A program made the translations under genes and the position numbers. The notes beneath the pieces are model-generated. The model did not search any database and was not told where the DNA came from. It saw only the letters and a list, made by a program, of their open reading frames with translations. DNA of 64,000 nucleotides from Candidatus Deferrimicrobiaceae bacterium. GTDB taxonomy: Bacteria > Desulfobacterota > Deferrimicrobia > Deferrimicrobiales > Deferrimicrobiaceae. The stretch lies in contig DASXVV010000011.1 of assembly GCA_036504035.1 (NCBI GenBank), forward strand, positions 9,611 through 73,610. Direction: 5' to 3'. Positions 882-26,450 of the stretch are shown here, in pieces. Positions within the stretch are counted from its first letter, which is position 1. Each line of letters opens with the position of its first letter.

Positions 882-1826
882 TCAGAATTTTTCGTAGGGG
901 GGCAGGTTGGCGCGACGGGCCATCCGCCTGAGAACGTCGAATTCTTCGTCGCGCGTGGGGGAATAACCGCGAACCCCATCCCTCTTTAATACGTTGAGAC
1001 GCTCGCCTTTTACTTCAGCGAAATCGCCGGGCGACAGCCGGAGCAACGCTTCCCGGAGCCGGTTGGCCTCTTTGGGGTCGAGCTGCGGCAGGGCGAAGAA
1101 GGTGCAGTTGGGAACGGGCGGGGATTTCGCGAGCACGCGGAAATCGGACATCCGCACCTTGCCCTCGGCCGACATCCGTTCGAGGTCGCCCACCTTGACC
1201 GCGCCGGCGTCGACCGCCCCGTAGAGGATCGAATAGACCACTTTCTCGTGCTGCCAGGCGCCGGGCAGGAAGGTGTAGCTGCCGAACAGTTTCTCGGGAT
1301 CGAGCCCCGCGGAGAGCAGCGTGTCGTACTGCGTCAGGTATCCGCCGGGCGAAAGGACGGGCCCGAAGACGATCTTCTTGCCGGCCAGGTCGGCCAGCGT
1401 GCGGGCGGGGGAATCGGAGCGGACCACGATGAGCCCGCCGGTATCGCGCCCCGTGTCGAGCTTTTCCTCGCGCGCGAGCAGCGTGCAGCCGACCTTCTCC
1501 TTGACGTTGACATAGATGTAGCCGTTGGCCTGGACGGCATCGAACCGCTTCTGCCTGGCCATCTCGACGAAATCGGTGGTGTTGACGTGGGATACGACGA
1601 CCTTGCGGCCGAGCTCCTTCTCGAGCCAGGCCCCGAGCACCTCGAAGCGCGCCTGGTTCTCCTCGAGCGAGTTGCACACCTGGAAGCCGATCCGCAAGGG
1701 GGGCTGCGGAGGGCGAAGAAGGGCCTTTGCCGAGACCAGCACGGTTCCCAGCAGAAGCAACGCGAATACGGCTTTGGATACTCTACTCAACCCGGACGAT
1801 TCCCAGACCCGGCACGACCTTGCCAT
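882..1826 (-). CDS. Periplasmic substrate-binding protein, PhnD/SsuA/transferrin-like family (ABC-type, phosphonate/sulfonate class)
   Basis: 314-aa ORF with a signal peptide. The overall sequence pattern fits PhnD-type binding proteins (LRIGF...TDF....G..D). A TTG at 1790..1788 would also give a clean signal peptide (SRVSKAVFALLLLGTV) and would remove the 44-nt overlap with the upstream gene. Confidence 0.55.
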   Translation of the reverse strand: MARSCRVWESSGLSRVSKAVFALLLLGTVLVSAKALLRPPQPPLRIGFQVCNSLEENQARFEVLGAWLEKELGRKVVVSHVNTTDFVEMARQKRFDAVQANGYIYVNVKEKVGCTLLAREEKLDTGRDTGGLIVVRSDSPARTLADLAGKKIVFGPVLSPGGYLTQYDTLLSAGLDPEKLFGSYTFLPGAWQHEKVVYSILYGAVDAGAVKVGDLERMSAEGKVRMSDFRVLAKSPPVPNCTFFALPQLDPKEANRLREALLRLSPGDFAEVKGERLNVLKRDGVRGYSPTRDEEFDVLRRMARRANLPPYEKF

Positions 1827-3459
1827 CGTGAACCGGAATATTTGTTGTCCCCTTGGGGGACCCGATCTTCGTGCCCTTCAGGACGACCGCTGCCGGACCG
1901 GACAGGTGGACCGCGTTGCGCCCGTAGCCGGCGATCTCGCCGCCAGAAAGGACCACGCTCCCCTTCGAGGCGCTGATCCCGTCGACCCGGCTTCCCGACG
2001 AACGGAATGACTCCATTGTAACATCGCCTTCGAGCAGCGAGAACGCGGCGAGCCCGGAATCGTCGACCGACACCCCGGTGATCCGCGCGGTCCCTTCCTG
2101 GACCGACAGCGGGACGTACATCCGCGAGAAGCGTCCCGGCCCGAAGCTCGCGCGGCTGTCGCGGAGCCGGATGCCGTACCACCCGGTGTCGCGCATCTCG
2201 ACCTTCGCCAGCGACACGGCGCTCCGGAACAGGTTGACGCCGGAGACCGCGTCGCGGACCGACAGCCCGTCGATGCGGACCGTGGCGTCGCGCCCGCGCA
2301 TGGCGCTTTGGACCTCATCGACCGAGATCCGGGCCAGCGACACCTCGGATTCCTGGAACTGCAAGCCCCGGCAGCAGCGGAAGATGCGGATGTCGGTGGC
2401 CGATAACCTGCTGAAGTGGGCGTGCAGCCCCCGATAGCTCCCGGCCACATCGACGTGTTCGAGCACGTTCTCGCCCTGGTCGCTCGCCATGAAGCTGATC
2501 GAATCCCACAGCCCCCGGGTGTCGCCCTCGGACGGGAAAAAGCCGATCGGCTTCTCTTTCGTGCCGCGCGCAGCCAGGTTGCCCTGGAGAAACAGGCCGT
2601 TCTCGCCGATGCCGTCGCCGTCCGTGTCGCGGAAAGTGAAGAAAAGGCGGGTGCCGGGCAAAAGCGTCAGCGTCGTTCCCGGCGCAACCCGGATGACCCC
2701 GTCGACGACGATGTCGCCCGAGAGCGTCCGGTCGTGGTCGATGAACGTGTCGCTCATCCGGGCGGCAGTCGACGGCGGCCGGGGGACGGCAAAGGAAACC
2801 GGGGGCGGCGGCGCGACGTCGGGATCCCACGCGACGGCGTCGGCCTCCTCGTTTCCCTCGGACACGAAGGATGCGGGGGCCGGGCCGGCGCCCGCAAAGC
2901 GGACGAATCCCACGCCGTTGCCGGCGGCCCGGAGCATTCCGGCCGGTTCGGTCCGGAGCCGCCCGCCGGGGAAGAGCGCGACGCCGGTGCGGCAGTCGCC
3001 CACGGACAGACGGCCGGAGACGGCGGCCTCTCCGCCAGCCAGCACCGTCAACCCCGCTTCGGCGCCGGTGATCGCACCGCCGGAAAACAGGGCGCGGCCG
3101 CCGTCGACCACGATCCCGCCGGTGCGCCCCGGAAAGCGGAAAGCGGCGTTGTCGGCCGCGAGCGTGCCCCGAACGACGATCTCGACGCCCCCGTAGAAAT
3201 ATTCGGGATCGACCTTGGTGGAATCGCTCCGGTCGAACAGGAAGACCGTTCCGGGCGCCGCGGACAGCGTCGCACCGGGAAGCACCATCACGTCGTCGGT
3301 GACATGGACCTCTCCCGAGACGCGCGTCTCCCCCGACAATTTTCCGGAAAGGGTTCGCCCCGCCGGGCCGACGCCGGGCGCCTCTGCCGCGCGGGATGCC
3401 GCGGAGACGAAGAGCAGTGCCGGCAACGCCAGCGACGCGGCGACGACGCGGAAGCGCAT
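1783..3459 (-). CDS. Secreted right-handed parallel beta-helix repeat protein
   Basis: 558-aa ORF with a signal peptide (MRFRVVAASLALPALLFVSAASRA). Gly/Ser/Thr/Val/Asp-rich beta-strand repeats (repeated LSGG.., VVDG.., ITG.. segments) typical of pectate-lyase/NosD-like beta-helices. It overlaps the upstream gene by 1 nt (TGATG). Confidence 0.5.
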   Translation of the reverse strand: MRFRVVAASLALPALLFVSAASRAAEAPGVGPAGRTLSGKLSGETRVSGEVHVTDDVMVLPGATLSAAPGTVFLFDRSDSTKVDPEYFYGGVEIVVRGTLAADNAAFRFPGRTGGIVVDGGRALFSGGAITGAEAGLTVLAGGEAAVSGRLSVGDCRTGVALFPGGRLRTEPAGMLRAAGNGVGFVRFAGAGPAPASFVSEGNEEADAVAWDPDVAPPPPVSFAVPRPPSTAARMSDTFIDHDRTLSGDIVVDGVIRVAPGTTLTLLPGTRLFFTFRDTDGDGIGENGLFLQGNLAARGTKEKPIGFFPSEGDTRGLWDSISFMASDQGENVLEHVDVAGSYRGLHAHFSRLSATDIRIFRCCRGLQFQESEVSLARISVDEVQSAMRGRDATVRIDGLSVRDAVSGVNLFRSAVSLAKVEMRDTGWYGIRLRDSRASFGPGRFSRMYVPLSVQEGTARITGVSVDDSGLAAFSLLEGDVTMESFRSSGSRVDGISASKGSVVLSGGEIAGYGRNAVHLSGPAAVVLKGTKIGSPKGTTNIPVHDGKVVPGLGIVRVE

Positions 3460-5289
3460 CAGTTCACGGCGGGGGCGAACCGGAGCACGGCCGGCGTGAG
3501 GCGGCCTCCCCGGGCCTGGACCACGACGGGGCCGATGCGTTCTTCCCCTACGCCGCCGGGGACGCCGGGGACGGACTTGCGCAGGAACGCCGCGAACTCG
3601 CCCTCCCCCGCCTGCGACACGGAAAACGCGCCCTGCGCGGAAACGACCGACGAACGCGCCAGCGGACGTCCGATCGTCTCTCCGGGACGATAGAAATAGA
3701 CGATGTACCCCTCGGCCGGAGAACCGCCGAGGGAGGCGGTCCCGGAGAGGAGGTTTCCCTCGGCGGAAGCCTCGGGATTTCCGGATGCCTCCTCCTGGCC
3801 GAGGTAACCGCGCTTCTCGAAAAGCGGAATCTCGAGATCGGTCACGGTCGATGCCACGACCTCGACCGGAGCATCGGGCCAGACGCCGAACAGCCCTCCC
3901 TCCTCGACCACGCCGATGACGGCGCCGCCGGGACGCTTCCGGGCGGCGGGCAGGTATTTCCCCGGGCGGAGGACCAGCAGCGCCGCACCCGTGGCGCCGG
4001 TCAGCGCCGACGCCTCCCCGGGCCCCCGGAAGTCGGGGGAATCGGGACGGAAGGCCTGGACGGTGGCTCCGGCGACGGGAATGCCGTCGAGCGTGACGCG
4101 CACGAGAAACCCGGACCGATTCGCGGCGGCAGCGCGCACAGTCTTGCCGGCCGGCGCCAGGATGGCGGGCAAGGCAAGGACGGCGCGCTCCCCCGCCTCG
4201 ACCGTGACCGGGTTGCGTCCCGGAAAAGCGAACAGCGACCCGGGACCTGTCCCCTTGCGGCCCGACACGAACCAGCGTCCGGGCGGTACGGGGAGGCGAT
4301 AGAGGCCGTCCGCGTCGGTGACGGCGCTCGCGGCGAAATCGTCGGGGAAAAGCCCGTCGGCGGGCGACGCCAGCGCACGGACTTCGGCGCCGGGAACCGG
4401 CGACTGCCCCCGGACGAAGACGCCGCGAATCTCTGCGCCGGTTGCGGGCGGAAGCGCGAGCATCGGCGCAAGCTTCGCCCGGCCGATCCCCGGAAGGCTG
4501 CCCCCGTCGTAGATTTTCGTGCGGGCGGATTCTTCATTGCGGGTGCCCCACCAGTTGCCGCCGGCATCGATGTCCTCGGCGTGGAGGTCGCCCAGCCGCA
4601 GGTTGAAGCGGCGGTTGGCGTAGATCGCGTTTTCGCGGATGAGGGATGCACTGTCCTTCGAGTGCAGGAAGATCCCGTCGCCGTTCCCGTAGACCAGGTT
4701 GCGCCGGATCTCGTTGCGGCAATCGCGGAAGTTGATGCCTCGGATCTCGTTGCACGTGAAGACCGAGTCTTCGATGCGCACTTTCGAGTTGCCCATCCGC
4801 ATCCCTTCCTCGTTGTCCCGGAACGTGCAGTGCGAGACGGAGAGCTCCGAGAAATGGGTGTGGAAGGCGTAGCGGGCGCCCTCGAAGATGCACCATTCGA
4901 ACCGACTGCCCGTGCTGAACGTGAACAGCAGCTTGTCCCATCCCCCGGCGAAGGCCTTGCCGCCGGACGGGGAAAACAGGATGGGCGCGTCTTCGGTCCC
5001 GGCGGCGACCACGCGACCTTCGATCTTGAATCCGCCCCCGACGAACCCTTCGTGCTCCTCGCCCGCCGCGTACGTGCGCGGCTCGAACAAAACCCGCGTC
5101 CCGGGGGCAAGCGTCAGCGTCGCCCCCTTGCGGACGTGGACGATGCCGTCGACGCGGACGTCGCCGTGCCATTCGGTGTCTTTCTCGATGACGACGACGG
5201 AGGGAACCGACGGCCCGCCTTTCGGGACATGCGCACAGGCAGCGAAAGTAAGCGCCAGCGCGAGAACCGTCAGGACACGCAGCTTCATC
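3459..5289 (-). CDS. Lipoprotein made of a parallel beta-helix domain followed by carboxypeptidase-regulatory-like (CarbReg) domains
   Basis: The true start is MKLRVLTVLALALTFAACAH (lipobox), not the R-rich N-terminal extension of the 750-aa ORF. The N-terminal half (KDTEWHGDVRVDG...GNWWGT) is paralogous to the 16904-17773 protein. The C-terminal half carries CarbReg-type repeats (LPVPPGRWFVSGRK...). Its ATG overlaps the DUF362 gene stop. Confidence 0.55.
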
Positions 5290-6235
5290 CCTCGGCGATC
5301 CGCCAGGCGGAGGGGGACGAAAACCAGAGGCCGGAATCGAGCGCCTTCTTGAGGTGGGCCACGTCGGCCGCCTTGAAGCCGAAGATCCGGTCGGCGGCGG
5401 CGAGATCGGCCGCCAGCGCGTTCCCCGAGGCGAACACGGTGTTGAACGCCTTGACGTCGGCCAGGTTGCCCCCGGACGGACCGTTCCGGAGCAGCACGCG
5501 CGTGGCGTCGATCACGGTCAGGCGGGCGGGGATGCGCCGCTGGAGATCGACCAGGCAGTCGGCCAGGTTGAAGTGAAGCTGCCCGCGGTTGCCGCCCATG
5601 ATGCCCATCATGTTTTTCAGCCCGAGCGTGATGCCCGCCAGCGAGTGGTGCTTGGCGACGGGGAGGTTGATGATCTTGTCGGCCTCGAGCGCGTCCCGGT
5701 AGAGTTCCCATTCCTTCATCGCCGTCGCTCCGGGGATGACGGTGCGGACGAACTTGCGATCCTCGACGTGGTAGATCTGCACGCTCCGCCCGGCGCCCGA
5801 CTTGGCGGCAAATCTCTCGACGGCATCCTGGATGCCGCTGTTGACGTAGCAGCGTCGCGGCTCGTTGCAGGTGCGGTCAAAGACGCGCACCGACTTTGCC
5901 CCTGCGGAAAGACACAGCTCGGCGACGGCGACGACCAGCTCCGGGTCGGTGTCGGCGGCCTGCTCGGGCTTGCGGTCCCAGCCGATGTTGGGCTTGAGTA
6001 CGACGACGTCGCCGCGCGAGACGAAGGCGCCGATGCCGCCGACGGCCGCGATCGCGCGACGCACATTGGCGGCGACGCCCGGCCCCGACGCGGCCCCCAC
6101 GACGGCGCCGCCCTTCGGATGCGGCGCGGGTGCGGCCTTGGCAAACGCCGGGATCGACCCCGAGGCGGCGGCCAGCCCCGCGGCCCCTCCGGCCAGCTTG
6201 AGAAAATCGCGTCGATTCATTCCGCCACGGTCCAT
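5285..6235 (-). CDS. Tat-exported DUF362 domain protein
   Basis: 316-aa ORF with a twin-arginine motif (NRRDFLKLAGGAAGLAAA). The DUF362-type core (VVLKPNIGW...NPELVVAVAELCL.AGA) is shared with the paralog at 15942-16877. Confidence 0.6.
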   Translation of the reverse strand: MDRGGMNRRDFLKLAGGAAGLAAASGSIPAFAKAAPAPHPKGGAVVGAASGPGVAANVRRAIAAVGGIGAFVSRGDVVVLKPNIGWDRKPEQAADTDPELVVAVAELCLSAGAKSVRVFDRTCNEPRRCYVNSGIQDAVERFAAKSGAGRSVQIYHVEDRKFVRTVIPGATAMKEWELYRDALEADKIINLPVAKHHSLAGITLGLKNMMGIMGGNRGQLHFNLADCLVDLQRRIPARLTVIDATRVLLRNGPSGGNLADVKAFNTVFASGNALAADLAAADRIFGFKAADVAHLKKALDSGLWFSSPSAWRIAEG

Positions 6236-6266: not shown

Positions 6267-8009
6267 TCAATCGGCGCCCGCGACCGGACGACGCTTCAAG
6301 ACGGGGGAGACGGGGATCTTTTCCTTGGTTCCGGGGTTGCGGAAGTCGCGCAGCTTCGGTTTGCGGCCGCCCCAGTAGTTACCCGACAGATCGAGACCGC
6401 CCTTGGCCCAGTCGCCGATCTTGGCGTCGACCTCCAGGTTCTCGATCCGGCACCCGTTGATTTTACCACCCCCGGCGCCGTCCCTGTAGAAGAGCCCGGT
6501 CCGGTTCCCGGAGATGACCGAGGCCGTGATGCGCGGACCGCCATCCCAAAAGCGAAGACCGATCTCGTTGCCGACGATGCTGCAGCGGTCGAAACGGGCC
6601 CCGGTGCCCTTGAGCCGCGCCCCGCCGCCGTTGCCCCGGAGCGTCGTCCGCGCGATCGTCACGTCGCCGTCGTGGATGTGCAGCCCCCAGAGCGCCCCCT
6701 CGAACAGCGCGTATCGGATCACGACGTCGGCCTCCTTCATGAAGACCTCGTTCCAGGGGCGAGCGGGGTCTAACCGGGCGAAGCGGACGGGCCTTCCGCG
6801 CTCGCCCTCGACGCGAAGCTTGCCGAACACCTTGAGGCCGCCGTCGGGAACACCCGCCTCCCCGTGCTCGTCGCCCGAGAGCAGCACCACGGTGCCGGGG
6901 CGGATCGTCAACGTCGCCCCCTTCTCGACCGTGACCGGCTCGGTGATCTTTACGGTGCCTTCCCAGCTCTCTTCGGCGGAGATCGAGCGCCCGAAGGCCG
7001 CGGCGTCGCCGGGACACGCGAAGGACAGGACGGCCGGAATGAGGAGCACGGCCGCCCCGAGTGGGGCGGCGCGCCTGGCCTTGCGAAACAGGTCGATCGA
7101 TAGGGAAACGCCGAACAGGAGCGCCCCGGCCCAGAACCATGGAGCGCCCGGCTCGCGCGTCATCTGCAGCCCGATGACCCGGCTGCCCGTCTCGTCGGGC
7201 CTGGCGACGGTCAGGCAGAAGGTGAAGCCGCCGAACGCGCCCGGGTGGTTGATCCGGATCTCTTCGACCTCGGGAGCGATTCCCGGCCGCACGAATCGGA
7301 CGCGAGCGACGTATTCGGCGATTTCGGGATCGGCCCACGCGACGGGAACGACCGTGAATCCGCCGGGCGCCGACGCTCCCGACGACCCGGTCCGAATCCC
7401 CGTTACGCGGAGGTCGCCGAGCGAGGCGTCGAACGTCAGCGCCTTCCGCGAGATATCGAAGCGGCGCGGAACGACCGTCAGGCCGGTGCCCGGGACGTCG
7501 AACGGAACGCCTTCCCGGACGTGAAACGGCCCGTGCTTGCCTCCGGATGCATCCCGGATGCCGATCTGGAGGTCCATGGGATGGTATCTCTCGGTGTATC
7601 CGAGCGCCTCGACCGTGAATGGAAAGGATTTGTCGACATTGTCGCGCCAGTCGAAGTACGCCGCGGAGCGCTCCCCGACCCGATAAAGCTGCGTCCCGAC
7701 GAATGCGAAGCGGGCATCGACGACGAGGCCCGCCATCAGCATGACCAGGCCGGCATGCAGCCCCAGGAAGACGGCGGCCCGGAAGCCCCGGAACTGACCG
7801 GTTCGCAGACGGGTGAAGGCGCAACAGGCGACGTTGAGTGCGAGGAGCAGCGCGGGTGCGAGAAACAGGGGGGAACGATAAAGGTTGATCGAGCCCTGGC
7901 TCGCGAACGAGGTGGCGCCGGTGTAAAGGAATGCCCCGACCGCGCCAAGCGCCGCCAGAACCAGGCACAGGGCGATGGTCAGCCGCGTCGACGAGAGGAA
8001 CCGGAGCAA
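6267..8009 (-). CDS. Fusion protein: ResB/CcsB-like N-terminal membrane domain plus C-terminal parallel beta-helix domain
   Basis: 580-aa ORF. The N-terminus (MLRFLSSTRLTIALCLVLAALGAVGAFLY...INLYRSPLFLAPALLLALNVACCAFTRL) resembles ResB family N-termini. The C-terminal 250 aa carry beta-helix repeats with a GNYWGG motif like the other beta-helix paralogs. Confidence 0.5.
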   Translation of the reverse strand: MLRFLSSTRLTIALCLVLAALGAVGAFLYTGATSFASQGSINLYRSPLFLAPALLLALNVACCAFTRLRTGQFRGFRAAVFLGLHAGLVMLMAGLVVDARFAFVGTQLYRVGERSAAYFDWRDNVDKSFPFTVEALGYTERYHPMDLQIGIRDASGGKHGPFHVREGVPFDVPGTGLTVVPRRFDISRKALTFDASLGDLRVTGIRTGSSGASAPGGFTVVPVAWADPEIAEYVARVRFVRPGIAPEVEEIRINHPGAFGGFTFCLTVARPDETGSRVIGLQMTREPGAPWFWAGALLFGVSLSIDLFRKARRAAPLGAAVLLIPAVLSFACPGDAAAFGRSISAEESWEGTVKITEPVTVEKGATLTIRPGTVVLLSGDEHGEAGVPDGGLKVFGKLRVEGERGRPVRFARLDPARPWNEVFMKEADVVIRYALFEGALWGLHIHDGDVTIARTTLRGNGGGARLKGTGARFDRCSIVGNEIGLRFWDGGPRITASVISGNRTGLFYRDGAGGGKINGCRIENLEVDAKIGDWAKGGLDLSGNYWGGRKPKLRDFRNPGTKEKIPVSPVLKRRPVAGAD

Positions 8010-8028: not shown

Positions 8029-8673
8029 TCAGATCAGCTTGCGAGACTTGAGGAACTTCCGGGCGACCGTCTTCGGGTCGGAAGCGCCTGCTTCCCGCAC
8101 GAGCGTCGCCATCGTCTCGTTGTCGAGGACGCCGCGCAGCTTCCCGAGAAGCTTGGGGAGCGCCGGAAACTTGGAGAGCGCATCCTTGCAGAGCATCAGG
8201 CCGGCCGGTCCCGGCTTTTCGCCCGCCCGACCCTTCTCGGTGAAGTAGCGGTCGTATCCGAACGGCTCGAGCCAGACGACATTGAACTTGCGGTTGAGGA
8301 TCTCCTTGATGCGGGCGAAATTTTTCTCTTCGTCCTGGGACGGCGCCTCGCCGCCCCACTTGCGGAGGACGACGCCGGAGTAGTCGCTGTAGATGCTGAT
8401 CTTGTCGGTGCGCATCGCCTCGAACGCCTCGTCGCGGGTGGCGAAGCGGGTCAGCTTGACGGTCGTGCCGGTGCGCTCGTCGATGAACACGGCCAGCAGG
8501 TTGGCGACCATCACCTGGTCGGGGCTGTCGTAATGCCCGATGAACAGGGTGCGGCCGACGCAGGCCGACGCGCGGCCGGGGACCGAGGCCGAGATCGCGC
8601 ACGCGAGGGCGACGGTCAGCGCAACCGCCGAAAACCAATAGGCAAGTCTTTTCAACGTCTCCTCCGAAGTCAC
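8029..8673 (-). CDS. Secreted hypothetical protein, possibly an OpuAC-like (glycine-betaine-type) substrate-binding fold
   Basis: 214-aa ORF with a signal/anchor sequence. The motif KISIYSDYSG resembles the OpuAC signature e-ID-iYpEYTG. This is a weak assignment. Confidence 0.3.
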   Translation of the reverse strand: MTSEETLKRLAYWFSAVALTVALACAISASVPGRASACVGRTLFIGHYDSPDQVMVANLLAVFIDERTGTTVKLTRFATRDEAFEAMRTDKISIYSDYSGVVLRKWGGEAPSQDEEKNFARIKEILNRKFNVVWLEPFGYDRYFTEKGRAGEKPGPAGLMLCKDALSKFPALPKLLGKLRGVLDNETMATLVREAGASDPKTVARKFLKSRKLI

Positions 8674-8676
8674 GGT

Positions 8677-9555
8677 TCAGAACGAATAGTGGTGCGGGCA
8701 GTCTTCGTCGAATATGCGATGGTAGCCCGACTCCATGTCGGGGGTGAGCCACGGAGTGATCCCCCCGAGCGCATCGATCAGGTGGCGCTGGCCGACCCGG
8801 ACGTTTCCCCCTTCGACCGCAAGGATCGCCGCCTTGCGGCAGATGTTTTCGATATCCCAGCCGGTGCAGCCGATGGCCAGCCGGGCGACCTCGCCGAAAT
8901 CGACCGCGGGGTCGATCGGCATCTTTTTCGTGTAGATGCGGAAAACCTCCTCGCGATCCTGCGCGGACGGCGGGGCGACGAAAATCTTCCGGTTGAACCG
9001 CTTCTTCTCCTTGATGGCGGCCTGGTCGACCACGTCGATGCGGTAGCAGGAACCGACGAGACGGACGGCGGGCACCTCGAGCAGCCCGTCGATCAGCCGG
9101 AGGAACTTTTCGGTGAACGCCATGTCGGCGAAGGTGGGCGGCTTGGCGCGCAGGTTGCCCGGGGACCAGGAATAGTCGGCGCCGGCCCGGGGGCAAAGCC
9201 AGTCGATGTCGGAGATGAAGAAGACGCACGGGGCTTCCCGGACGGCGATCTCGAACGCTTCCTCCATCCGGTCGATCTTGCCCAGCATCTCCTGGCCCGA
9301 GACGTAGGCGTAGGTGACGCCCGCCTCGGTGGCCGCCGCCTCGGCCAGCATCGTGATGCCCTGCCCCAGCGGCCCCCAGACCATGACGCCGGAGGGCAGC
9401 TCGACGCCCATGCGGGCCAGCTCGTCGCGGCGGGTCAGCGGAAGGCAGACCATTTCCTTCATCTTTTCCTTGGGCCCCGCGAGGCCGCCGATGTCGGCCC
9501 AGGACAGGCGCGGGTCGCGCACCTCGTAGAAAACGTTTTCAAGCCGTCTATGCAC
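8677..9555 (-). CDS. AAA-family protein with degenerate nucleotide-binding motifs (pseudo-ATPase)
   Basis: 292-aa ORF that aligns to the AAA module of FtsH/VCP-type proteins. Walker A is GPLGQGIT where GPPGTGKT is expected, so the Lys is lost. Walker B is FFISDID where hhhhDEID is expected. Confidence 0.55.
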   Translation of the reverse strand: MHRRLENVFYEVRDPRLSWADIGGLAGPKEKMKEMVCLPLTRRDELARMGVELPSGVMVWGPLGQGITMLAEAAATEAGVTYAYVSGQEMLGKIDRMEEAFEIAVREAPCVFFISDIDWLCPRAGADYSWSPGNLRAKPPTFADMAFTEKFLRLIDGLLEVPAVRLVGSCYRIDVVDQAAIKEKKRFNRKIFVAPPSAQDREEVFRIYTKKMPIDPAVDFGEVARLAIGCTGWDIENICRKAAILAVEGGNVRVGQRHLIDALGGITPWLTPDMESGYHRIFDEDCPHHYSF

Positions 9556-9617: not shown

Positions 9618-10412
9618 TCAGGGGCAGCCGTCGTATCGGACCCGGATGGTCCGGACGCCGGAATCGGCCTGCGGCGCCTCGTCCTTCCGCTCGGCGAATC
9701 GCGCCTTCCCGCGCGCGATGAGATCATCCCCCATCGACGGCTCGCGCAGCCGCACCCGGCCTTCGCGGCAATGCCTCGGGCAGGCGGACACGGATGCGGA
9801 GGAGGCCCCGCCGAGCCACGGGCAGCGGTCGGACACGGTCACGATGGGCCACCCCTCGTGCACGAAGAGCAGCGGCGTCTCCCCTTCCCCGTCCGCCATG
9901 GGCATTGCCCGCGGGATACCCCACGGAAGCGCATCGACGTGAAAGCCCCGGATTCCCATCTTCCCGGTCAGGAATCGCGACGCGACGGGCGACGAATGGA
10001 GCCCCTCGCCGTGCCACGCGCGTTCTTCGTCCGTCAGCCGATCGGACACCCCGATGCGGGGGCAGCTTTTCTGGCCCGACAACAGCCGGCCGAGCGTCAG
10101 CGGGAGTTCGGGGAACAGCGTTCGCCACGCGTAGAGCGCGCCCCAGTCGTTGACCGAGAGCGTCACGTCGGCGCCGGCCGGGATCGATCGCAGCAACGCG
10201 GTGACGCGCTTGAGCTCGGCGTCGCGCAGGTATGGCGTCAGCAGCAGCAGCGGGATGTCGCGCGCCGACGTCTCTTCGATCGCCTGCGTGAGCGCTATTC
10301 GGCCCGGCAGAAGGTGGATGCAGTAGTCGCTGCCGATCGCGGCTCCCACGCCGGCCGGGAGGCGCGGGATCAGGACGCCGTCGGGGTCCGCGTAGCGGAT
10401 CTCGGAGATCAC
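9618..10412 (-). CDS. U32-family 'peptidase'-like protein, UbiV-like small subunit
   Basis: A GTG start overlaps the stop of the upstream U32 gene (GTGA). The sequence VISEIRYADPDGVLIPRLPAG... is U32-like. The Cys pattern C-x12/13-C-x3-C (CPWLGGASSASVSACPRHC) matches the Fe-S ligands of UbiV-type proteins. The longer 545-aa ORF in this frame is an R-rich artefact upstream. Confidence 0.45.
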   Translation of the reverse strand: MISEIRYADPDGVLIPRLPAGVGAAIGSDYCIHLLPGRIALTQAIEETSARDIPLLLLTPYLRDAELKRVTALLRSIPAGADVTLSVNDWGALYAWRTLFPELPLTLGRLLSGQKSCPRIGVSDRLTDEERAWHGEGLHSSPVASRFLTGKMGIRGFHVDALPWGIPRAMPMADGEGETPLLFVHEGWPIVTVSDRCPWLGGASSASVSACPRHCREGRVRLREPSMGDDLIARGKARFAERKDEAPQADSGVRTIRVRYDGCP

Positions 10413-11380
10413 GGGCGATCCTCCTCGCCGGGACGGAATTCGGGGAAATAGCAGTTGGCGGGGCTGCAGGGCCGGCCGAATATCTCCCGGTAGAGCGCCT
10501 TCCCCCGGCGTGCGCACGACGAAGCGCTCCCCGCGTCGGGCACACCCTCGTCGCGCATCCGGCGCACGGCTTCGACCGCCGCGACCTTCCGGGCGGTCTC
10601 GGACCCGCGCCCGACGATCTTGAACGCGTGGATGCCCGCGGCCGCCAGCATCGGCACCGCGCACAGCCCGCACGAATAGTAGCGGTCTGCGCCCTCGTTT
10701 CGGTCGAGCGCCTTGCGCACCATCGGCGGCATCTCGGGGGCGATCCCCTCCCATTGCTTTTCGTAATGCAGCTCGCACGGCCACGTCCGGTTCGGATCGT
10801 CGTGCAGGTGGCCGCAGAAGCCCTCGATGTTGGGGCAGCGCCCGCGCATCCCGATCACCTCGACCGGAGTCTTGCACGAGGCGGCCACCCGGGAGGCCTC
10901 GGCCACCGAGAGCTCGCGCGCCAGGACGACGCGTGCCGCGCCCAGCCGGGCCAGGAAGGAGACCGCGGCGCCGTTGAAGGCGGAGAACAGGGTGCTCGCG
11001 TGGAGCTCGAACCGCCGGAACCGCCGGTCGCGCAGTGCGAGCAGAAGCGCCAGGTCGGAGACGATCGCGCCGCGCACTTCCCGCGCCGCGAGCTCGACGA
11101 CGAAGTCGACGAGCCTGGGGAGCATGGCGTCGGGGATCGGCGTGGCATTCAGGACGACGTAGACGGGCAGGCCGCGCAGGTTGGCGGCGTAGACCAGCGC
11201 GTCGAGCTCCTTCAGGGAGGGCAGGTTGGCCGCGTCGAAGGTCCGGCGGTTGCACGAGACGAGCGGCCCGAACGCCTCGGCCCAGAACGGCGGGACGATG
11301 CCCGCGTAGAATTCCTCGGCGCCGGCATCAGCCAAAAGGGGCAGTTCGTCGGCGCGATCGACGGGGGACAGGATGCGCAT
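10409..11380 (-). CDS. U32-family 'peptidase'-like protein, UbiU-like large subunit
   Basis: The true start is MRILSPVDRADELPLLADAGAEEFYAGIV, the classic U32 N-terminus. Conserved Cys are present (CPNIEGFCGH...CELH...CGLC). Confidence 0.55.
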   Translation of the reverse strand: MRILSPVDRADELPLLADAGAEEFYAGIVPPFWAEAFGPLVSCNRRTFDAANLPSLKELDALVYAANLRGLPVYVVLNATPIPDAMLPRLVDFVVELAAREVRGAIVSDLALLLALRDRRFRRFELHASTLFSAFNGAAVSFLARLGAARVVLARELSVAEASRVAASCKTPVEVIGMRGRCPNIEGFCGHLHDDPNRTWPCELHYEKQWEGIAPEMPPMVRKALDRNEGADRYYSCGLCAVPMLAAAGIHAFKIVGRGSETARKVAAVEAVRRMRDEGVPDAGSASSCARRGKALYREIFGRPCSPANCYFPEFRPGEEDRP

Positions 11381-11385: not shown

Positions 11386-11850
11386 CTATTTTCCCCCCTG
11401 GACGGTCACGCCGCGCCGCGTCACCCCGGCCTGGTCGCCCGAGATCCCCTTGGCCGCGCAGTGGACGACCGCGTTCTCGAGGATGCCCACCGAGCCGCGC
11501 TCGAAAACGATGCCGCCCCAGGGGCCCGCCGCGCAGCCCCCCGCCGTGTCGAAGCGCACCGGCTTCGAAGGAACGCCGCGCACCAGCAGACGCCCGCGCA
11601 CCACGATGTCGGCCCCGACCTTGGGCTGGACCAGCACCTCGGTGCCCGGCTCGATAGAGACCGTCACCCCTTCGGCGATGACGACCGTGCCCGTCAGCCG
11701 GATGATCCCTTCCCACGACCCGGAGGCCTTGATGTCGCCCCGGTAGAAGCGGGCATTCGCGTGCGGAAACGCCACCCCCGCCAGGCCGCAGGCAAGGAGC
11801 AGCGCAGCCAGGACGCCCGCACGGACTCGCGACACGTTCCGCCCTCCCAT
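11386..11850 (-). CDS. Small secreted parallel beta-helix protein
   Basis: Start at MGGRNVSRVRAGVLAALLLACGLAG, a signal peptide. It has beta-helix-like Gly/Val repeats. ATGA overlap with the upstream CarbReg gene. Confidence 0.4.
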   Translation of the reverse strand: MGGRNVSRVRAGVLAALLLACGLAGVAFPHANARFYRGDIKASGSWEGIIRLTGTVVIAEGVTVSIEPGTEVLVQPKVGADIVVRGRLLVRGVPSKPVRFDTAGGCAAGPWGGIVFERGSVGILENAVVHCAAKGISGDQAGVTRRGVTVQGGK

Positions 11851-12920
11851 CACCGTTTCTCCACCACGACGACCAGCGGCTCCGCGGGCGCGTCGGCCAT
11901 TGCTTCGGCCGAATGATCGGGCGTGCCGCCGTACCGGCCGTACCACTCGCCGTCGGCCGGCCCCCCGAGCCGCTCGCGCGCCAGCAGGTGATAGCGGCCC
12001 GGATCGGCGACGAGCAGGTCGACCCGCCCGTCGGCGCCCGACTTCCCGGAGACGTACGCGGGGTATCCGCTCATCGAGGCGTCCTTGTAGGCCAGCAGGC
12101 GGACACCCGGAACCGGATGCCCCTCCCCGTCGACCATGCGGGCCCGGATCGAGATCTCGTGCACGGGCTCCTTAGCCTCGCCCATCCGCTCCTGCTGCGA
12201 CAGCCGCGGCATCGCGTCGATCCGCAGGCCTCGCGGCACGCCTTCGACGAGCGTCACCGGATTGCCCGGGTAGAATCCGAAGTAGTCGCCCGGCGCCGTG
12301 GGACCGAACAGCTCCCCCGACTTCCGCTTGCGGGCGATCACGAAGAAGGTGCCCTTCTTCACGCGCACGCGGAACGCGCCGTCCTCCTTCGTGCGGACGA
12401 ACGTCCCGGGCATCCCCTTGAAACCGTCGGCGGCGCTCTTGTAGAGGTAGACCGTGGCGCCGGCCAGCGGCTTCCCCTTCTCGTCGTACACCAAGCCGGA
12501 GAGGCCCGCCTGCGCGTCGGGGGCGGGATCGGCGTCGAGCCGAGACAGGTTGAGCCCGACCAGCGCCGCCCTCCCCGTCTCGACGCGTACGGGGTTGCCG
12601 CCGAAGAAGCAGAACAGGTCGCCCGGCTTCGGCGCGGCGGGCGCGCCCGGGGCGCGCTGCCCGACGAGGAACCAGTTGCCGGGCGGCAGCGCGAGGGAAA
12701 ACATCCCGTCGGCCCCCGTCGCCCGGCTTTGCGCCTCGGGCTCCTGCGCGGCGCCCCGGTCGTAGTCGCGGTAAGCGAGGACGACCACGCCGGCGACGCC
12801 CTCGTTGTCGAGCGCCGCCTTGCCGCGGACCCCGGTGAACGGGGCGTCGGGCGTCGCCGCGAGGGCTACGGCCGCGGCAGCGAGCGTCAGGAGCAGGCAG
12901 GCGACGGCCCGGCGAATCAC
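11850..12920 (-). CDS. Secreted protein with three tandem carboxypeptidase-regulatory-like domains
   Basis: 356-aa ORF with a signal peptide. Three repeats each end in ...LPPGNWFLVGQRAPG / GTFFVIARKRKSG / ...GEWYGRYGG, the CarbReg signature shared by five other genes in the array. Confidence 0.55.
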   Translation of the reverse strand: MIRRAVACLLLTLAAAAVALAATPDAPFTGVRGKAALDNEGVAGVVVLAYRDYDRGAAQEPEAQSRATGADGMFSLALPPGNWFLVGQRAPGAPAAPKPGDLFCFFGGNPVRVETGRAALVGLNLSRLDADPAPDAQAGLSGLVYDEKGKPLAGATVYLYKSAADGFKGMPGTFVRTKEDGAFRVRVKKGTFFVIARKRKSGELFGPTAPGDYFGFYPGNPVTLVEGVPRGLRIDAMPRLSQQERMGEAKEPVHEISIRARMVDGEGHPVPGVRLLAYKDASMSGYPAYVSGKSGADGRVDLLVADPGRYHLLARERLGGPADGEWYGRYGGTPDHSAEAMADAPAEPLVVVVEKR

Positions 12921-14497
12921 GGGTATCCCCCGGCGTCCCCTCGGGTGGCGGTGTAGGACACCCCGGCGCGCGTCTCACCGCGGGAGGTGACCACGATGGC
13001 CGCCCGGTCGGGCAGGGGGCACTTGGTCTCGCAGATGCCGCACCCGATGCATTCGCGCTCGTCGATGTAGGGCCGCTTGAACGTCTTGACCTCGCCCCCC
13101 ATCGTGACGACCTTCTCTTCCTGGAGCACGATGGCCTTCTTCCCGGTGGGGCAATGTTCCTCGCAGACGATGCAGTCGGATTCGCCCTTCCAAGGCAGGC
13201 AATGGCTCCGGTCGACCTCGGCCAGCCCGAGCTTGACCTTGCGCTTCTCGGCGACCGGCATCCGGCGGATCGCACCCGTCGGGCAGACCTGGCCGCAGAG
13301 CGAGCAGTTGAACTCGCAGTAGCCGATGCGCGGGACGAGCACCGGGCTCCACAGTCCCTCGATCCCCGCCTCGAGCCAGGCCGGCTGCAGGCCGTTGGCG
13401 ATGCAGACGCGCATGCACTCACCGCAACGGGTGCAGCGGGCGAGGAATTCGGGTTCGGCCAGCGCACCCGGCGGGCGGATCAGCCACTGGGACGGAGCCT
13501 TCCCATGCGCCTGCGACCCGAAGAAGGGGACCGAAACGGCGCCGGCCGCCGCCGCCAGCATCACGCCCCGGCGCGACAGGTCGACCGGGTCGCCCTGACG
13601 CCCTTCCTTGCCCGTGAAGAAGATGACCTTTTCGGGGCAGACGACCTGGCAGTCCATGCACTCGATGCACTCGCCATGATCGGTCGCGAGATGGTCGCGG
13701 ATGGCGCCGGTGCGGCAGTCGCCGTCGCACAGGCCGCATTTGATGCAGCCGGCGGCCTCGACGCGCCGCCGGAACAGGCCGAAGCGGCCCAGGAGCGCCA
13801 GCAGCGCGCCGAGCGGGCACAGGTTCCGGCACCAGAAGCGGCGCTGATAGCGCTCGGCGGCGAGGATGCCGACGAACAGCCCGCCGACGACGATCGCGCT
13901 CCGGTAGACCGGCTGCTCGAAGGCGAGGAAGTGCCCCTTGAGGAAGCCGTAGGCAGGTTCGGTCACCCAGGTGACGGGCGGTCCGACCTTGTAGGCGGCG
14001 CCGAAGAGCGCGTTGAGCGCGGCATTGAGCGCGGGGTAGACGGAAAACGTCAGGGTGCGGATCAGCAGGCTGATCGGGTCGAACAGGAACACCCACTGCA
14101 GCGTAAAGAGCGAGGACGCCGCCAGCGCGACGAGCAGCAGGTACTTCCAGCGGCGCCAGGAGGAAGGGACCGTCGAGGGCTTCCGCCGACGCCGACGGAA
14201 CAGCGTCGCGGATGCCGCGTCGAGGACCGCCCCCATCGGGCAGAACCACCCGCAGAAAAAGCGGCCCAGGAGCAGCGTCAGGGCGACCGTGACCAGCGCG
14301 GGCCACACGAGCCCGATCAGGGCGCGGCCCGCGGCCACGGCCGCGCCGGCCACGAGCGGATCGAGCCGGAGGAACACGTTGACCGCGTAGCGGAGGACGT
14401 CGTTGTCCTTGTATTCGGTGTTGAGGAACAGGAAGCCGAACACGAGGAACACGGCCCATTGGGAAACACGCCGCAGCGTGCGCATCGACATCTTCAT
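12917..14497 (-). CDS. NapH/MauN-family integral-membrane polyferredoxin (quinol-dehydrogenase-like)
   Basis: Start at MKMSMRTLRRV with Shine-Dalgarno GGAAGGAGAG. The N-terminal membrane region carries CGWFCPMGA, the NapH/NosR/MauN-type CGWxCP motif. There are six CxxCxxCxxxCP-type ferredoxin clusters. ATGA overlap with the upstream gene. Confidence 0.7.
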   Translation of the reverse strand: MKMSMRTLRRVSQWAVFLVFGFLFLNTEYKDNDVLRYAVNVFLRLDPLVAGAAVAAGRALIGLVWPALVTVALTLLLGRFFCGWFCPMGAVLDAASATLFRRRRRKPSTVPSSWRRWKYLLLVALAASSLFTLQWVFLFDPISLLIRTLTFSVYPALNAALNALFGAAYKVGPPVTWVTEPAYGFLKGHFLAFEQPVYRSAIVVGGLFVGILAAERYQRRFWCRNLCPLGALLALLGRFGLFRRRVEAAGCIKCGLCDGDCRTGAIRDHLATDHGECIECMDCQVVCPEKVIFFTGKEGRQGDPVDLSRRGVMLAAAAGAVSVPFFGSQAHGKAPSQWLIRPPGALAEPEFLARCTRCGECMRVCIANGLQPAWLEAGIEGLWSPVLVPRIGYCEFNCSLCGQVCPTGAIRRMPVAEKRKVKLGLAEVDRSHCLPWKGESDCIVCEEHCPTGKKAIVLQEEKVVTMGGEVKTFKRPYIDERECIGCGICETKCPLPDRAAIVVTSRGETRAGVSYTATRGDAGGYP

Positions 14498-15936
14498 CTC
14501 TCCTTCCCGGGACGGATGGTCACCCGCCCCGGCCCGACGTTTCTTCTCTCGGCGACCGCGCCGCCGGGGAAGGTGACGCGCAGGTCGCACGGGCGGCCGC
14601 CCGGCAGCCGGAACAGCCATTCGGCGGGCGGTTGCGCGCAGTATCCGCTCCCGGCCTGCAATTCCATCGTCGAGAGCAGCGCGCGGGGATCGCCGAGCCT
14701 CCCGGCCTCATAAAGTCGCGCGACCGAGCCTACCGCGGTCCGCCCCGGCACCGACGGCCGGACCGCGAGCGCGGGAACACGCCCCGCCGTGTTTCGGTAA
14801 AGCCGGTTGTGGCCGTCGTAGTTGCTCGCGTAAAGATCGAGGGCGCCGTCGCCGTCGACGTCGGCGAACACGATTCCCTCGTTCCGCTTCCGGCTTCCGA
14901 CGCCCGCCCGCGCGCCCAGCTCCTCGAACCGCATCCCGCCCAGGTTGCGGAACAGCCGGACGGGCCCGGAAAAGCCGGCGCTCGCGATCTCGGGGAGCAG
15001 GTCGCCATCGAGGTCGCCCGCGGCCCCCCCGACGCTGTGGCCCGACCGGATCCCGGAGGACGCCGTCACGTCGGTGAAGCGTCCGTGCCCGTCGTTCCGG
15101 AACAACCGGTCGGGACCGTCGTACCCTCCGACGAACAGATCGAAGCTGCCGTCGCCGTCGAGGTCGGCCGCGACGACCGACATCGACCAGCGCAAGCCTC
15201 CGAGCCCCGCCGCCGCGGTGCAGTCTTCGAACGTGCCGGCGCCCCGGTTGCGGTAATACTTCAGCCCGTCGCTCTTGCCGTCGCCGCCGCGCGCGACGAC
15301 CAGGTCGGGGTGCCCGTCGCCATCGAGGTCGGAGAAGGTCGCCGACCAGCTTCGCCCTTCCTCGCCGAGCCCTGCGGCATCGGTGGCGTCGACGAAACGC
15401 AACCGCTCCGGCTCGGAGCGGTTGAGATAGAGCGTGTTGCGCCCCCAGTTGGCGACGAAAATATCCAGCCGCCCGTCGCCGTCGACATCGGCCATCGCGG
15501 TCGAGATGCCGTTGCGGCGCGCGGCGAGCCCGGCTTCGGCGGAGACTTCGCGCCACTTCCCGTCGGCGTCGGCCGCATAGAGCAGGTTGGTCCCGTACGG
15601 GTAAGCCCCGCGGACGACGAACAGCTCGTCCCGCCCGTCCCCGTCGAGGTCGGCGAAGAGCGCTCCGATGCCGCCCGTGCCGAAGGCCCCCGCATCGCCG
15701 GCGATTTCCGCGAAACGACCATCCCCCCGGTTGCGCAGCATCCGGTTGCGTCCCTTGACGACGGGGAGGAACAGGTCGGCGCGTCCGTTTTCCCCGTTGA
15801 ACGTGAAACAGGCGCCCTCGCCGTACTTGATCGACGGGATGCCCGAGGACGCGGTCGCGTCGGAGAGCCAGGCCGCCGGCATGTCGGATGCGGCGGCCGA
15901 GGCCAACAGCGAAGCGCAGGCCGAGGCCGCGAGCAA
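14494..15936 (-). CDS. FG-GAP/VCBS repeat protein with ASPIC/UnbV-like C-terminal domain (CRTAC1 family)
   Basis: 480-aa ORF with repeated DLDGDG.DL / FV.N...NRLYRN motifs. It is paralogous to 26545-28065. A TTG start with a signal-like N-terminus. Confidence 0.6.
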   Translation of the reverse strand: MLAASACASLLASAAASDMPAAWLSDATASSGIPSIKYGEGACFTFNGENGRADLFLPVVKGRNRMLRNRGDGRFAEIAGDAGAFGTGGIGALFADLDGDGRDELFVVRGAYPYGTNLLYAADADGKWREVSAEAGLAARRNGISTAMADVDGDGRLDIFVANWGRNTLYLNRSEPERLRFVDATDAAGLGEEGRSWSATFSDLDGDGHPDLVVARGGDGKSDGLKYYRNRGAGTFEDCTAAAGLGGLRWSMSVVAADLDGDGSFDLFVGGYDGPDRLFRNDGHGRFTDVTASSGIRSGHSVGGAAGDLDGDLLPEIASAGFSGPVRLFRNLGGMRFEELGARAGVGSRKRNEGIVFADVDGDGALDLYASNYDGHNRLYRNTAGRVPALAVRPSVPGRTAVGSVARLYEAGRLGDPRALLSTMELQAGSGYCAQPPAEWLFRLPGGRPCDLRVTFPGGAVAERRNVGPGRVTIRPGKER

Positions 15937-22551: not shown

Positions 22552-22628
22552 GGAAGAGAACCTACCCGGCTCAGGGACTAGGTGCGTTTCTAACAAGATA
22601 CCACTTCCCGGGCCGTTGCGTCGGGGCC

Positions 22629-25487: not shown

Positions 25488-26450
25488 CTACCTGTAAAGA
25501 TTGTAGGGGAGCACTTTCTTCCCCTTGGCGTCGCGGTACAGCACCCGCTCGCCGGTGATGTTCTCGAGCGCCCGCGCCGACCACTCGCGCACGTTGGGGT
25601 CGGCGTCTTCGAGCGTCTTGCGCAAGGCGCCCTCGGAGGGCTTCGCGATGAGGATGCCCAGCGACCAGGCGCACTCGACGCGCACGCCAGTCTCGCCCTC
25701 GAGCAACCAACGCTCGAGCGGCGCATAGCACTTGACGGTGCCGCATTTGGACAGCGCCCGCGCCGCCGCCGCCTGGATCACAGGATCTTTTTCGGTGTCG
25801 AGGACGGCAAGCAGCGCGTCTTCGGCCCCCGTGTCCTCGATGTCCTCGAGCGCACGAAGCATCGCCTTCCGGGCCCGGCCCGACGATCCGGGGAGCGCCG
25901 AAACGATGGCCGGCGTCGACTTCTTGCCGATGTTGATGAGCGCGCGCGTGGAGGCCTTGACCACGCTCTCGGTGCGATCGGAAAGCGCCCCCACCAGCAC
26001 GGGAATGGAGCCCGGATCGCGGATCTCGCCCAATGCCCACGCCGCGATATACCGCCGCGACCGGTCGGACTTGAGCATCTCCGTCAGCCGGGGAACCGCT
26101 TCTTTGGCCCGGATCTCGCCCAACAGCCCCGCGGCCAGCTCGACCTTGGCCGGATCCGGGTCATCGAGCGCCGCCATCATCGGGGATTCGAGCTTGGGCC
26201 CCATCGCCGTCATGACGCGGATCAGCCGCTCGTTGTCTTCGGTCGCGAAATATCCCAACAATGCCCGGATCTTGCCCGGATCGCCCGCCTTTGCCTCTTC
26301 GACCGCCCGTTCGGCCTCGGGAGAGAGGGGGGTCCCCGGCATCGCTGTGTGGAGGACGCGACGCTCGCCGCCGGCCGTACCGCACGCCGCGAAGAGGAGG
26401 CAGAAGAACCCGATGCCGATCCACCGCACCCTTGACCGCGTCGACTTCAT
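25488..26450 (-). CDS. HEAT-repeat (PBS-lyase-type) lipoprotein
   Basis: MKSTRSRVRWIGIGFFCLLFAACG (lipobox). Repeated A.ALGEI.D...IP.L..AL.D motifs. Shine-Dalgarno GGAGGG. Confidence 0.55.
   Translation of the reverse strand: MKSTRSRVRWIGIGFFCLLFAACGTAGGERRVLHTAMPGTPLSPEAERAVEEAKAGDPGKIRALLGYFATEDNERLIRVMTAMGPKLESPMMAALDDPDPAKVELAAGLLGEIRAKEAVPRLTEMLKSDRSRRYIAAWALGEIRDPGSIPVLVGALSDRTESVVKASTRALINIGKKSTPAIVSALPGSSGRARKAMLRALEDIEDTGAEDALLAVLDTEKDPVIQAAAARALSKCGTVKCYAPLERWLLEGETGVRVECAWSLGILIAKPSEGALRKTLEDADPNVREWSARALENITGERVLYRDAKGKKVLPYNLYR

Follow-up and report, generated by a model that had tools for sequence, protein, structure and literature searches.

The stretch of DNA analysed here (called the window below) comprises 64,000 nucleotides of a Candidatus Deferrimicrobiaceae bacterium (contig DASXVV010000011.1, positions 9,611 to 73,610) and carries a gene at 6267..8009 in which a ResB/CcsB-like membrane module is joined to a right-handed parallel beta-helix. 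The gene lies on the minus strand, as do all the features of the fusion protein and of its gene cluster whose window coordinates are given below. According to the list of open reading frames (ORFs) and their translations, it forms a single open frame of 580 codons plus a stop codon, with a TTG start at 8009 and the stop at 6267-6269, and thus encodes a protein of 580 amino acids (aa). Its GC content by codon position (0.67/0.52/0.85) is typical of coding sequence in the ~68% GC DNA of the window, and the beginning of the protein, (M)LRFLSSTRL, agrees with the consensus of its homologs, MxRFLSSTKL. A 100% identical protein from a Candidatus Deferrimicrobia metagenome-assembled genome (MAG) is deposited at NCBI as HEY3490269.1, where it is named only 'right-handed parallel beta-helix repeat-containing protein', and a scan of the fusion protein against NCBIfam returned no family, the sole match ('invert_tail') being at chance level. 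The protein is a five-helix inner-membrane protein with a periplasmic beta-helix, and it is a fixed part of a conserved five-gene module.

Architecture of the fusion protein

The ResB/CcsB-like module occupies aa 1-313 (7071..8009) and consists of three transmembrane (TM) helices, a beta-rich periplasmic domain and a fourth helix, as indicated by Pfam, Foldseek, profile searches against PDB and an AlphaFold2 model. The Pfam family ResB (PF05140) matches in two stretches near both ends of the module with 37.2 bits (gathering cut-off 24.6 bits, E 2e-9), and the same family is precomputed on nearly all homologs of the fusion protein. The AlphaFold2 model of the whole protein, built with 49 homologs, has a mean predicted local distance difference test score (pLDDT) of 84.3 and contains helices at 8-28, 47-69 and 75-101, a beta-rich region at 103-284, helices at 289-313 and 319-331, and then the beta-helix. 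In a Foldseek search against PDB, its best matches are the Helicobacter hepaticus CcsBA structures 7s9y and 7s9z (E 1e-10, probability 1.00, 352 columns); after CcsBA, all remaining matches are weak ones to beta-helices. A profile made from the fusion family only had no match among PDB sequences at E up to 1, the family being too divergent. A wider profile, seeded with natural ResB-only members and extended by exhaustive search to 582 representative relatives (mostly 300-420 aa), matched CcsBA at E 3.8e-21 (25vk_A) and E 6e-16 (7s9y_A).

Three residues within the membrane stand out. TM1 (aa 8-28; 7926..7988), delimited by alignment, hydropathy and AlphaFold2, contains C15 (codon 7965-7967); TM2 (aa 47-69; 7803..7871), delimited by alignments, contains C63 (codon 7821-7823) within the motif LNxxxC[TS]xxR; and TM3 (aa 75-101; 7707..7787) contains H85 (codon 7755-7757), which a hidden Markov model (HMM) alignment matches to the 'LLLHASFIVIIIGA' histidine of CcsBA, that is, to TM-His1. 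In H. hepaticus CcsBA, the 'LLLHASFIVIIIGA' histidine precedes a periplasmic region that starts at residue 98. H85 is invariant in the 49 fusion homologs and in 40 members of the wider family, where it is aligned with the CcsBA 'LLLHASF' histidine. The alignment of these 40 wider-family sequences has only three invariant columns, two of which are C63 and H85, and C63 is invariant throughout the wider family of short ResB-like proteins. C15, C63 and H85 each lie 6-10 residues from the cytoplasmic helix ends, in the cytoplasmic third of their respective helices. TM-His1 is an axial ligand of the membrane haem site of CcsBA; the remaining three conserved histidines, like the WWD domain, are part of CcsA (PMC6299221). 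Bacillus subtilis ResB was reported to bind haem covalently, probably via a cysteine (PMC3884852).

The periplasmic beta-rich ResB domain (aa 102-288; 7146..7706), recognized by the AlphaFold2 strands at 103-284 and by conservation, keeps P130-F131, H143-P144 and N254-x-P256. It ends just before TM4 in the invariant motif G-L-Q-x-T-R-E-P-G at 280-288 (Q282-x-T-R-E-P-G288), and its motifs align to CcsBA residues 229-246 and 253-329. We take the haem-binding Cys-138 of B. subtilis ResB to be the TM2 cysteine, an assumption from which no argument is drawn here. The N-terminus is a CcsB/ResB-type module that has retained TM-His1 and the TM2 cysteine. It shares with CcsB/ResB (PF05140; CcsBA structures 7s9y, 7s9z and 25vk) the three helices, the beta-rich periplasmic domain and the fourth helix, as well as TM-His1, the TM2 cysteine and the periplasmic motifs preceding TM4. 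As in CcsBA, a further module is fused right after TM4; in CcsBA, however, this module is CcsA, while here it is one helix followed by the beta-helix.

That helix, TM5 (aa 314-332; 7014..7070), is assigned on the basis of hydropathy and charge (AlphaFold2 helix 319-331), with a cytoplasmic RKARR before it. The beta-helix itself (aa 340-560; 6330..6992) is supported by AlphaFold2, paralogy and motif conservation; modelled alone, it reaches a pLDDT of 95.2 and a predicted template modelling score (pTM) of 0.92, and the Pfam family Beta_helix matches its residues 443-526 with 25.0 bits, slightly below the cut-off of 25.9. It bears an invariant H444-x-H446 motif (6672-6680), an Asn ladder and the motif G-N-Y-W-G (6369-6383). 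Hydropathy and the positive-inside rule predict that the N-terminus and RKARR face the cytoplasm and that residues 102-288 and the beta-helix lie on the other side of the membrane. An alignment over 255 aa with the beta-helix of the secreted protein encoded at 3459-5288 gives 28% identity (E 2e-23), and the two domains have in common an N-terminal W-G-V motif, FEGA..H.H and GN(Y/W)WG. The H-x-H motif, invariant in the fused domain, is also conserved in two other orthologous groups of beta-helix proteins, and its second histidine is universal. The fused beta-helix and the secreted beta-helix proteins encoded around it are thus members of one paralog family.

A search for the WWD motif, the signature of CcsA, found none in the six-frame translation of the 64-kb window and none in ~25 related fusion loci with flanks of up to 10 kb; two other loci (L037 and L038) serve as a positive control, since there the search does pick up a CcsA gene immediately after a more distant ResB gene. 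Pfam scans of the larger window ORFs gave no match to the CcsA family, neither P-His nor TM-His2 of CcsA was found nearby, and the 23 proteins of the cluster contain no CXXCH motif. The nearest unfused relatives (300-350 aa) are also without an adjacent CcsA. The genes of these unfused ResB-like proteins lie beside genes for membrane proteins of the TPR/PMT_2 type, for Big_1 surface proteins, for a CarboxypepD_reg protein and, once, for a DUF362 protein. On five metagenome contigs (L024, L027, L028, L031 and L036), the CcsA-less ResB-like genes of this size adjoin genes for large membrane proteins with a PMT_2-like N-terminus and a TPR C-terminus, and for Big_1/invasin-like secreted proteins. 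This neighbourhood is a second, uncharacterised context of CcsA-less ResB.

The initial annotation, made from the sequence alone, had read the N-terminal ~330 aa as a ResB/CcsB haem-handling protein with no CcsA/ResC gene nearby, and the C-terminus as a beta-helix of the type of the secreted paralogs, presented to the periplasm in an architecture not described before. Each of these readings has held up: the likeness to ResB rests on profile matches both to PF05140 and to the CcsBA structures, of the conserved haem-ligand histidines, the single one contributed by CcsB is present and invariant as H85, and the topology predicted from hydropathy and the positive-inside rule places the beta-helix in the periplasm. 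In the literature, we found no paper on the ResB::beta-helix architecture or on GeoRSP, the gene system related to this cluster (see below).

Conservation and natural split of the fusion

The fusion is not confined to one genome, a point that the initial annotation had left to be searched for. Among 101 matches in a homology search, 76 are 578-662 aa long, and nearly all of these span the whole query at 47-70% identity. The full-length homologs were drawn from NCBI, JGI, ENA and Logan assemblies and come from Candidatus Deferrimicrobia or Deferrimicrobiaceae and from MAGs labelled 'Deltaproteobacteria'. Invariant positions in their alignment are found in both halves of the protein and include C15, C63, H85, Q282-x-T-R-E-P-G288, H444, H446, the Asn ladder and N544-x-W546.

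A few relatives, all from one sublineage, have instead a ResB-only gene of 325-341 aa and a separate beta-helix gene of 277 aa. In these, the beta-helix half starts exactly at the position of TM5 and has a signal-like sequence of its own, MLPLLNAAVGASLLLFLCLSPVASHVFG; TM5 of the fusion protein has the look of a one-time signal peptide or signal anchor by which the beta-helix is taken across the membrane. Between the two genes lies an MNT (NTP_transf_2)/HEPN toxin-antitoxin cassette (L004:11041-11743; also in L005, L006, L007, L018, L033 and L034), at a site that falls within the cytoplasmic loop between TM4 and TM5. Because the cassettes of all the split loci are the same, with identities of 100% or 91-93%, the split can be traced to one secondary insertion that has been tolerated since, and the two-gene form is a secondary fission rather than the ancestral state. 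The initial annotation had named separate genes in relatives as grounds for regarding the fusion as an artefact; the parts are indeed separate in this one sublineage, yet by secondary insertion of the cassette, and the suspicion of an artefact does not follow. A distant MNT homolog is also encoded in the window itself, at 40124-40351.

The gene cluster and its relation to GeoRSP loci

To describe the genomic context, the called genes of relatives (L001 and L004) were mapped onto the window by tblastn, and 40 loci were scanned with HMMs. The order AAA ATPase, small binding protein, ResB::beta-helix, DUF362 protein exported by the twin-arginine translocation (TAT) pathway, and beta-helix/transthyretin-like protein is unchanged in ~25 loci. 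The AAA ATPase (8677..9555), always two genes upstream of the fusion gene, is a classical single-domain protein of 292 aa that matches Pfam AAA and AAA_lid_3 and, partially, the CDC48, PAN and FtsH models. Always adjoining upstream is the gene for a small, OpuAC-like periplasmic binding protein (8029..8673; Pfam OpuAC, E 1e-11; synteny in ~25 loci). In this half-size protein, the signal peptide is followed by an invariant A-C-V-G-R-T (orthologs in ~15 loci), and judging by this motif the mature protein would begin with, or be lipidated on, the conserved cysteine. Always adjoining downstream is the DUF362 gene (5285..6235; TAT signal MNRRDFLK..., Pfam DUF362 E 5e-46, synteny), which in relatives overlaps the fusion gene by 4 nucleotides. 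DUF362 shares a Pfam clan with the N-terminal domain of LarA, and no solved structure related to it by sequence was found. The fifth gene (3459..5288; Pfam, paralogy, synteny) encodes a secreted NosD-like beta-helix protein with a CarboxypepD_reg (transthyretin-like) domain, the closest paralog of the fused beta-helix; it passes the cut-off of the Pfam NosD family PF05048 (40.8 versus 23.6 bits) and fails that of TIGR04247 (25 versus 300 bits).

The conserved order extends on both sides of this module. Upstream it comprises a polyferredoxin, a small protein, a U32 peptidase, a UbiV-like protein, the AAA ATPase and the OpuAC-like protein, leading to ResB::beta-helix. In the window, the conserved genes beyond the AAA ATPase encode a fused polyferredoxin of the NapH-NapG type (12917-14620), a secreted protein that is transthyretin-like (11850-12920), a 125-aa protein related to the N-terminus of the beta-helix proteins (11389-11763), a UbiU-like U32 peptidase with a partial UbiU match (about 10430-11380) and a UbiV-like protein of 260 aa with a CX13CX3C pattern and no Pfam match (about 9618-10409). 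By sequence, the U32 protein and its CX13CX3C partner resemble the UbiU/UbiV heterodimer, an O2-independent hydroxylase. The polyferredoxin combines a NapH-like membrane ferredoxin (Fer4_5) and a NapG-like polyferredoxin in one polypeptide, and could supply the cluster with quinol-derived electrons on its periplasmic side.

Downstream, the order continues with DUF362, the beta-helix/transthyretin-like protein, a second beta-helix protein, a PhnD-like protein, a small protein, YedE, an ArsP-like permease, PqqD, a radical S-adenosylmethionine (SAM)/SPASM protein and a SPASM protein. The window contains the first part of this series: the second beta-helix protein (1783-3459), the PhnD-like binding protein (882-1826), a 133-aa unknown protein (460-861) and a YedE-family transporter whose gene is truncated at the window start (8-523); this part was assigned by tblastn mapping together with Pfam and NCBIfam. 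Further members of the cluster are an SO_0444-like permease and two TAT-exported DUF362 proteins. Genes for FG-GAP repeat proteins, a PQQ/BamB-type beta-propeller and a HEAT/PBS-lyase repeat protein (14494-15936, 21487-22632, 25488-26450 and 26545-28065) are interleaved with the beta-helix/transthyretin-like array; they are not in the conserved core of L001 and L002.

The downstream part of the cluster resembles GeoRSP (TIGR04302-04304), a system of Desulfuromonadales of unknown function. In L001, the radical SAM protein scores 407.4 bits against the GeoRSP model TIGR04303 (cut-off 400) and the transporter 312 bits against the YedE model TIGR04112, 'putative selenium transporter' (cut-off 200); the PqqD and SPASM partners are in the right order, with scores of 49.9 and 105.3 bits that remain below the respective cut-offs of 100 and 300. 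A homolog of the GeoRSP radical SAM protein (P0292, named GeoRSP protein by NCBI) is encoded on the same 290-kb contig as the window, and past the window start (L040) follow ArsP, PqqD and the GeoRSP radical SAM gene (~5 kb beyond the start) as well as a gene of 300 aa with no Pfam match in the place where L001 has the SPASM protein. In the cultured Desulfuromonas versatilis, the GeoRSP cluster consists of genes for a short binding protein, two NosD-like beta-helix proteins, PhnD, YedE, PqqD, the radical SAM protein, a SPASM protein and a class V aminotransferase. The binding-protein-like gene at its head encodes a shorter protein with a signal peptide and a cysteine that is weakly similar to the OpuAC-like protein. 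A GeoRSP-type cassette with YedE, a PhnD-like protein, a cysteine-bearing small binding protein and NosD-like beta-helix proteins thus flanks the fusion module; the D. versatilis cluster differs in having no ResB-like, DUF362, AAA, U32 or polyferredoxin genes.

ResB::beta-helix was seen only in Deferrimicrobiota-type MAGs and, since ResB is absent from the Desulfuromonas cluster, the fusion gene belongs to a lineage-specific extension of the GeoRSP cluster, in which the beta-helix half takes the place of a free secreted beta-helix protein. An orthology between the fused beta-helix and the first Desulfuromonas beta-helix was not adopted, as it rests on position only, with 27% identity at E 9e-6 and better matches from other paralogs. 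Nor did we adopt a general pairing of ResB with DUF362 genes, given a single unfused example (L023) and close DUF362 homologs that in other phyla pair with PqqD/SPASM rather than with ResB. DUF362 proteins 64-66% identical to those of the window occur in unrelated MAGs (L041:8001-9296 and L043:2451-4762, one labelled Limnocylindria), where their genes are followed directly by PqqD, in L043 also by a SPASM protein, with GT2, DUF2304 and flippase genes beside them. This suggests that the association of DUF362 with PqqD/SPASM is wider than the GeoRSP-type cluster.

Possible roles of the fusion protein

To our knowledge, the role of CcsB/ResB has so far been interpreted solely as that of one half of the system II cytochrome c synthetase, and what it contributes by itself is a matter of debate. 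The present protein departs from that setting in its surroundings: neither WWD, P-His nor TM-His2 is found nearby, the cluster contains no c-type cytochrome, and the conserved neighbouring genes encode an AAA ATPase, a small binding protein and a DUF362 protein exported by the TAT pathway. A clade in which the CcsB module has kept its membrane histidine and cysteine while CcsA has been swapped for a beta-helix, with partners other than cytochromes, is therefore a natural test of what CcsB does alone. The same loci tie DUF362, the GeoRSP radical SAM system, arrays of NosD-like beta-helix proteins and YedE into one syntenic unit and, with Desulfuromonas as a cultured reference for the core, the function of these families becomes experimentally approachable.

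In its layout, the module also recalls NosDFYL (PDB 7osf), which serves the maturation of nitrous oxide reductase: both have a periplasmic beta-helix on a membrane protein, along with an ATPase in the cytoplasm and a small protein of the binding-protein type in the periplasm, and in the present cluster the neighbouring paralogs match Pfam NosD and the polyferredoxin is NapH/NosH-like. The differences are that the membrane part is CcsB-like instead of the ABC-2 permease NosY, that the ATPase is of the AAA rather than the ABC type, and that NosZ and NosL are missing; no NosF/NosY ABC transporter and no NosZ were found among the scanned window ORFs or in the related loci. We rejected a place for the fusion protein in the NosD family, as it matches no NosD model (PF05048 or TIGR04247) and NosD ranks only 31st among the fold matches of its beta-helix. 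The resemblance to NosDFYL is best described as an analogy of layout, not as membership.

We tentatively propose, as a reading that is quite possible although still somewhat short of probable, that the fusion protein is a CcsA-independent membrane subunit that holds the beta-helix and most likely binds a ligand passed to the periplasmic side. The protein would work without CcsA as a membrane-embedded subunit of a periplasmic machine and would keep one beta-helix at the membrane surface. Its putative ligand site, in the inner leaflet, would be formed by H85 (TM-His1) and C63 and, in the fusion clade, also by C15, with haem, another metal or a metallocofactor as candidate ligands. The module might then hand the ligand over to, or couple it with, the periplasmic face of the membrane, where the H-x-H motif of the beta-helix family is located; in effect, a CcsB module may have been re-used with a new periplasmic acceptor replacing CcsA. 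The suggestion of the initial annotation that a cofactor or substrate is delivered to the beta-helix proteins of the array is compatible with a Cys/His site in the membrane and the H-x-H motif, and anchoring or scaffolding is equally compatible with the same observations.

Several points weigh against this proposal. Binding of a ligand is predicted only, from sequence and models, and the membrane haem site of CcsBA needs a second histidine, which CcsA provides and which is absent here. C15 is not kept outside the fusion clade, the mutual placement of the two domains in the AlphaFold2 model is unreliable (pTM 0.48), and the fold matches of the beta-helix are generic, with NosD (7osf_A) at rank 31 (E 0.05, template modelling score 0.33). 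Only part of the genome is in view, and a CcsA encoded elsewhere is possible. The natural two-gene split indicates that covalent linkage is dispensable, which suits a loose scaffold as well as a hand-off. Moreover, we know of no AAA ATPase that powers the membrane transport of small ligands.

The strongest alternative, which we nonetheless consider rather unlikely, is a pure anchor or scaffold: the ResB-like module, with no ligand role and with its His and Cys residues being structural, would tether the beta-helix and, through it, a complex of DUF362 and the beta-helix/transthyretin-like protein. The occurrence of the two halves as separate polypeptides, the missing CcsA-derived half of the haem site and the Desulfuromonas core cluster, which has free secreted beta-helix proteins and no ResB, are all in favour of it. 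However, one TM helix would be enough for an anchor, whereas a module of 313 aa has been kept, with invariant TM-His1 and TM2 Cys and a strongly conserved QxTREPG, among sequences of 17-70% identity; the positions kept are, moreover, those implicated in the handling of haem by CcsB/ResB.

The membrane subunit with a bound ligand that we propose can be taken further, into a picture that is bolder and, in our estimate, unlikely as a whole. The module of AAA ATPase, binding protein, CcsB-like::beta-helix and DUF362 would constitute an unrecognised trans-membrane delivery machine that arose by re-use of the haem-channel half of cytochrome c synthetase, loading a metallocofactor derived from the cytoplasm, or a metal-chalcogen species supplied via YedE and the ArsP-like permease, onto secreted beta-helix proteins matured by the GeoRSP radical SAM system. 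If so, CcsB modules would be general membrane devices for ligand handling rather than being dedicated to cytochrome c.

The beta-helix could also be a lyase, an epimerase or a binding module of a membrane-tethered polysaccharide-active enzyme, with the cluster serving cell-envelope biogenesis, a possibility that we regard as distinctly improbable. When the beta-helix is searched alone with Foldseek, the best matches are the pectate lyase Pel9A, the alginate epimerases AlgE4 and AlgG, alginate lyases and tailspikes; a large locus for glycan biosynthesis takes up the rest of the window, the short ResB-like relatives adjoin PMT_2/TPR glycosyltransferase-like proteins, and the DUF362-PqqD pairs of other phyla adjoin GT2 and flippase genes. 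Yet the fold matches are all weak and of the kind that any beta-helix gives (E at least 1e-3, query-normalised template modelling scores of at most 0.58), the glycan locus is outside the conserved synteny in L001, L002 and L039, and the conserved partners are redox, radical SAM and transport proteins.

Highly improbable is a role as half of a cytochrome c synthetase, in which the CcsB part would partner a distant CcsA for a particular cytochrome and the beta-helix would recruit the substrate. Wolinella has multiple CcsBA paralogs that mature particular c-type cytochromes, and the present module retains both the fold and TM-His1. The organism also makes multihaem cytochromes: an ORF at 63592-63999 (minus strand), cut by the window end, encodes a cytochrome c7-like protein with four CXXCH motifs, and a multihaem cytochrome of 1170 aa is encoded ~10 kb past the window start (L040:10708-14220). 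With multihaem cytochromes on both sides of the region, the organism must have a working cytochrome c maturation system somewhere. Against such a role for the fusion protein stand the lack of CcsA in the 64-kb window and within 10 kb in the ~25 loci, the lack of CXXCH motifs in the cluster proteins and a synteny with the AAA ATPase, the binding protein and DUF362 instead of cytochromes. The closest unfused relatives point the same way, as they have no adjacent CcsA, whereas the more distant ones have it directly downstream.

Finally, an artefact in which two genes were joined by a frameshift, by the loss of a stop codon or through misassembly is excluded, even though the halves are separate in one sublineage: independent assemblies yield 76 sequence clusters with the single ORF and a conserved junction, at 47-70% identity, and one MNT/HEPN insertion explains the split.

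Elsewhere in the window, inside the glycan biosynthesis locus, the GC content drops from ~0.68 to 0.55-0.60 at 36000-46000, and two paralogous AAA_14/DUF4143 ATPase genes (36905-38047 and 51257-52438) are located in or near this stretch. The low GC content together with these paralogs suggests that part of the glycan locus may have been acquired horizontally.

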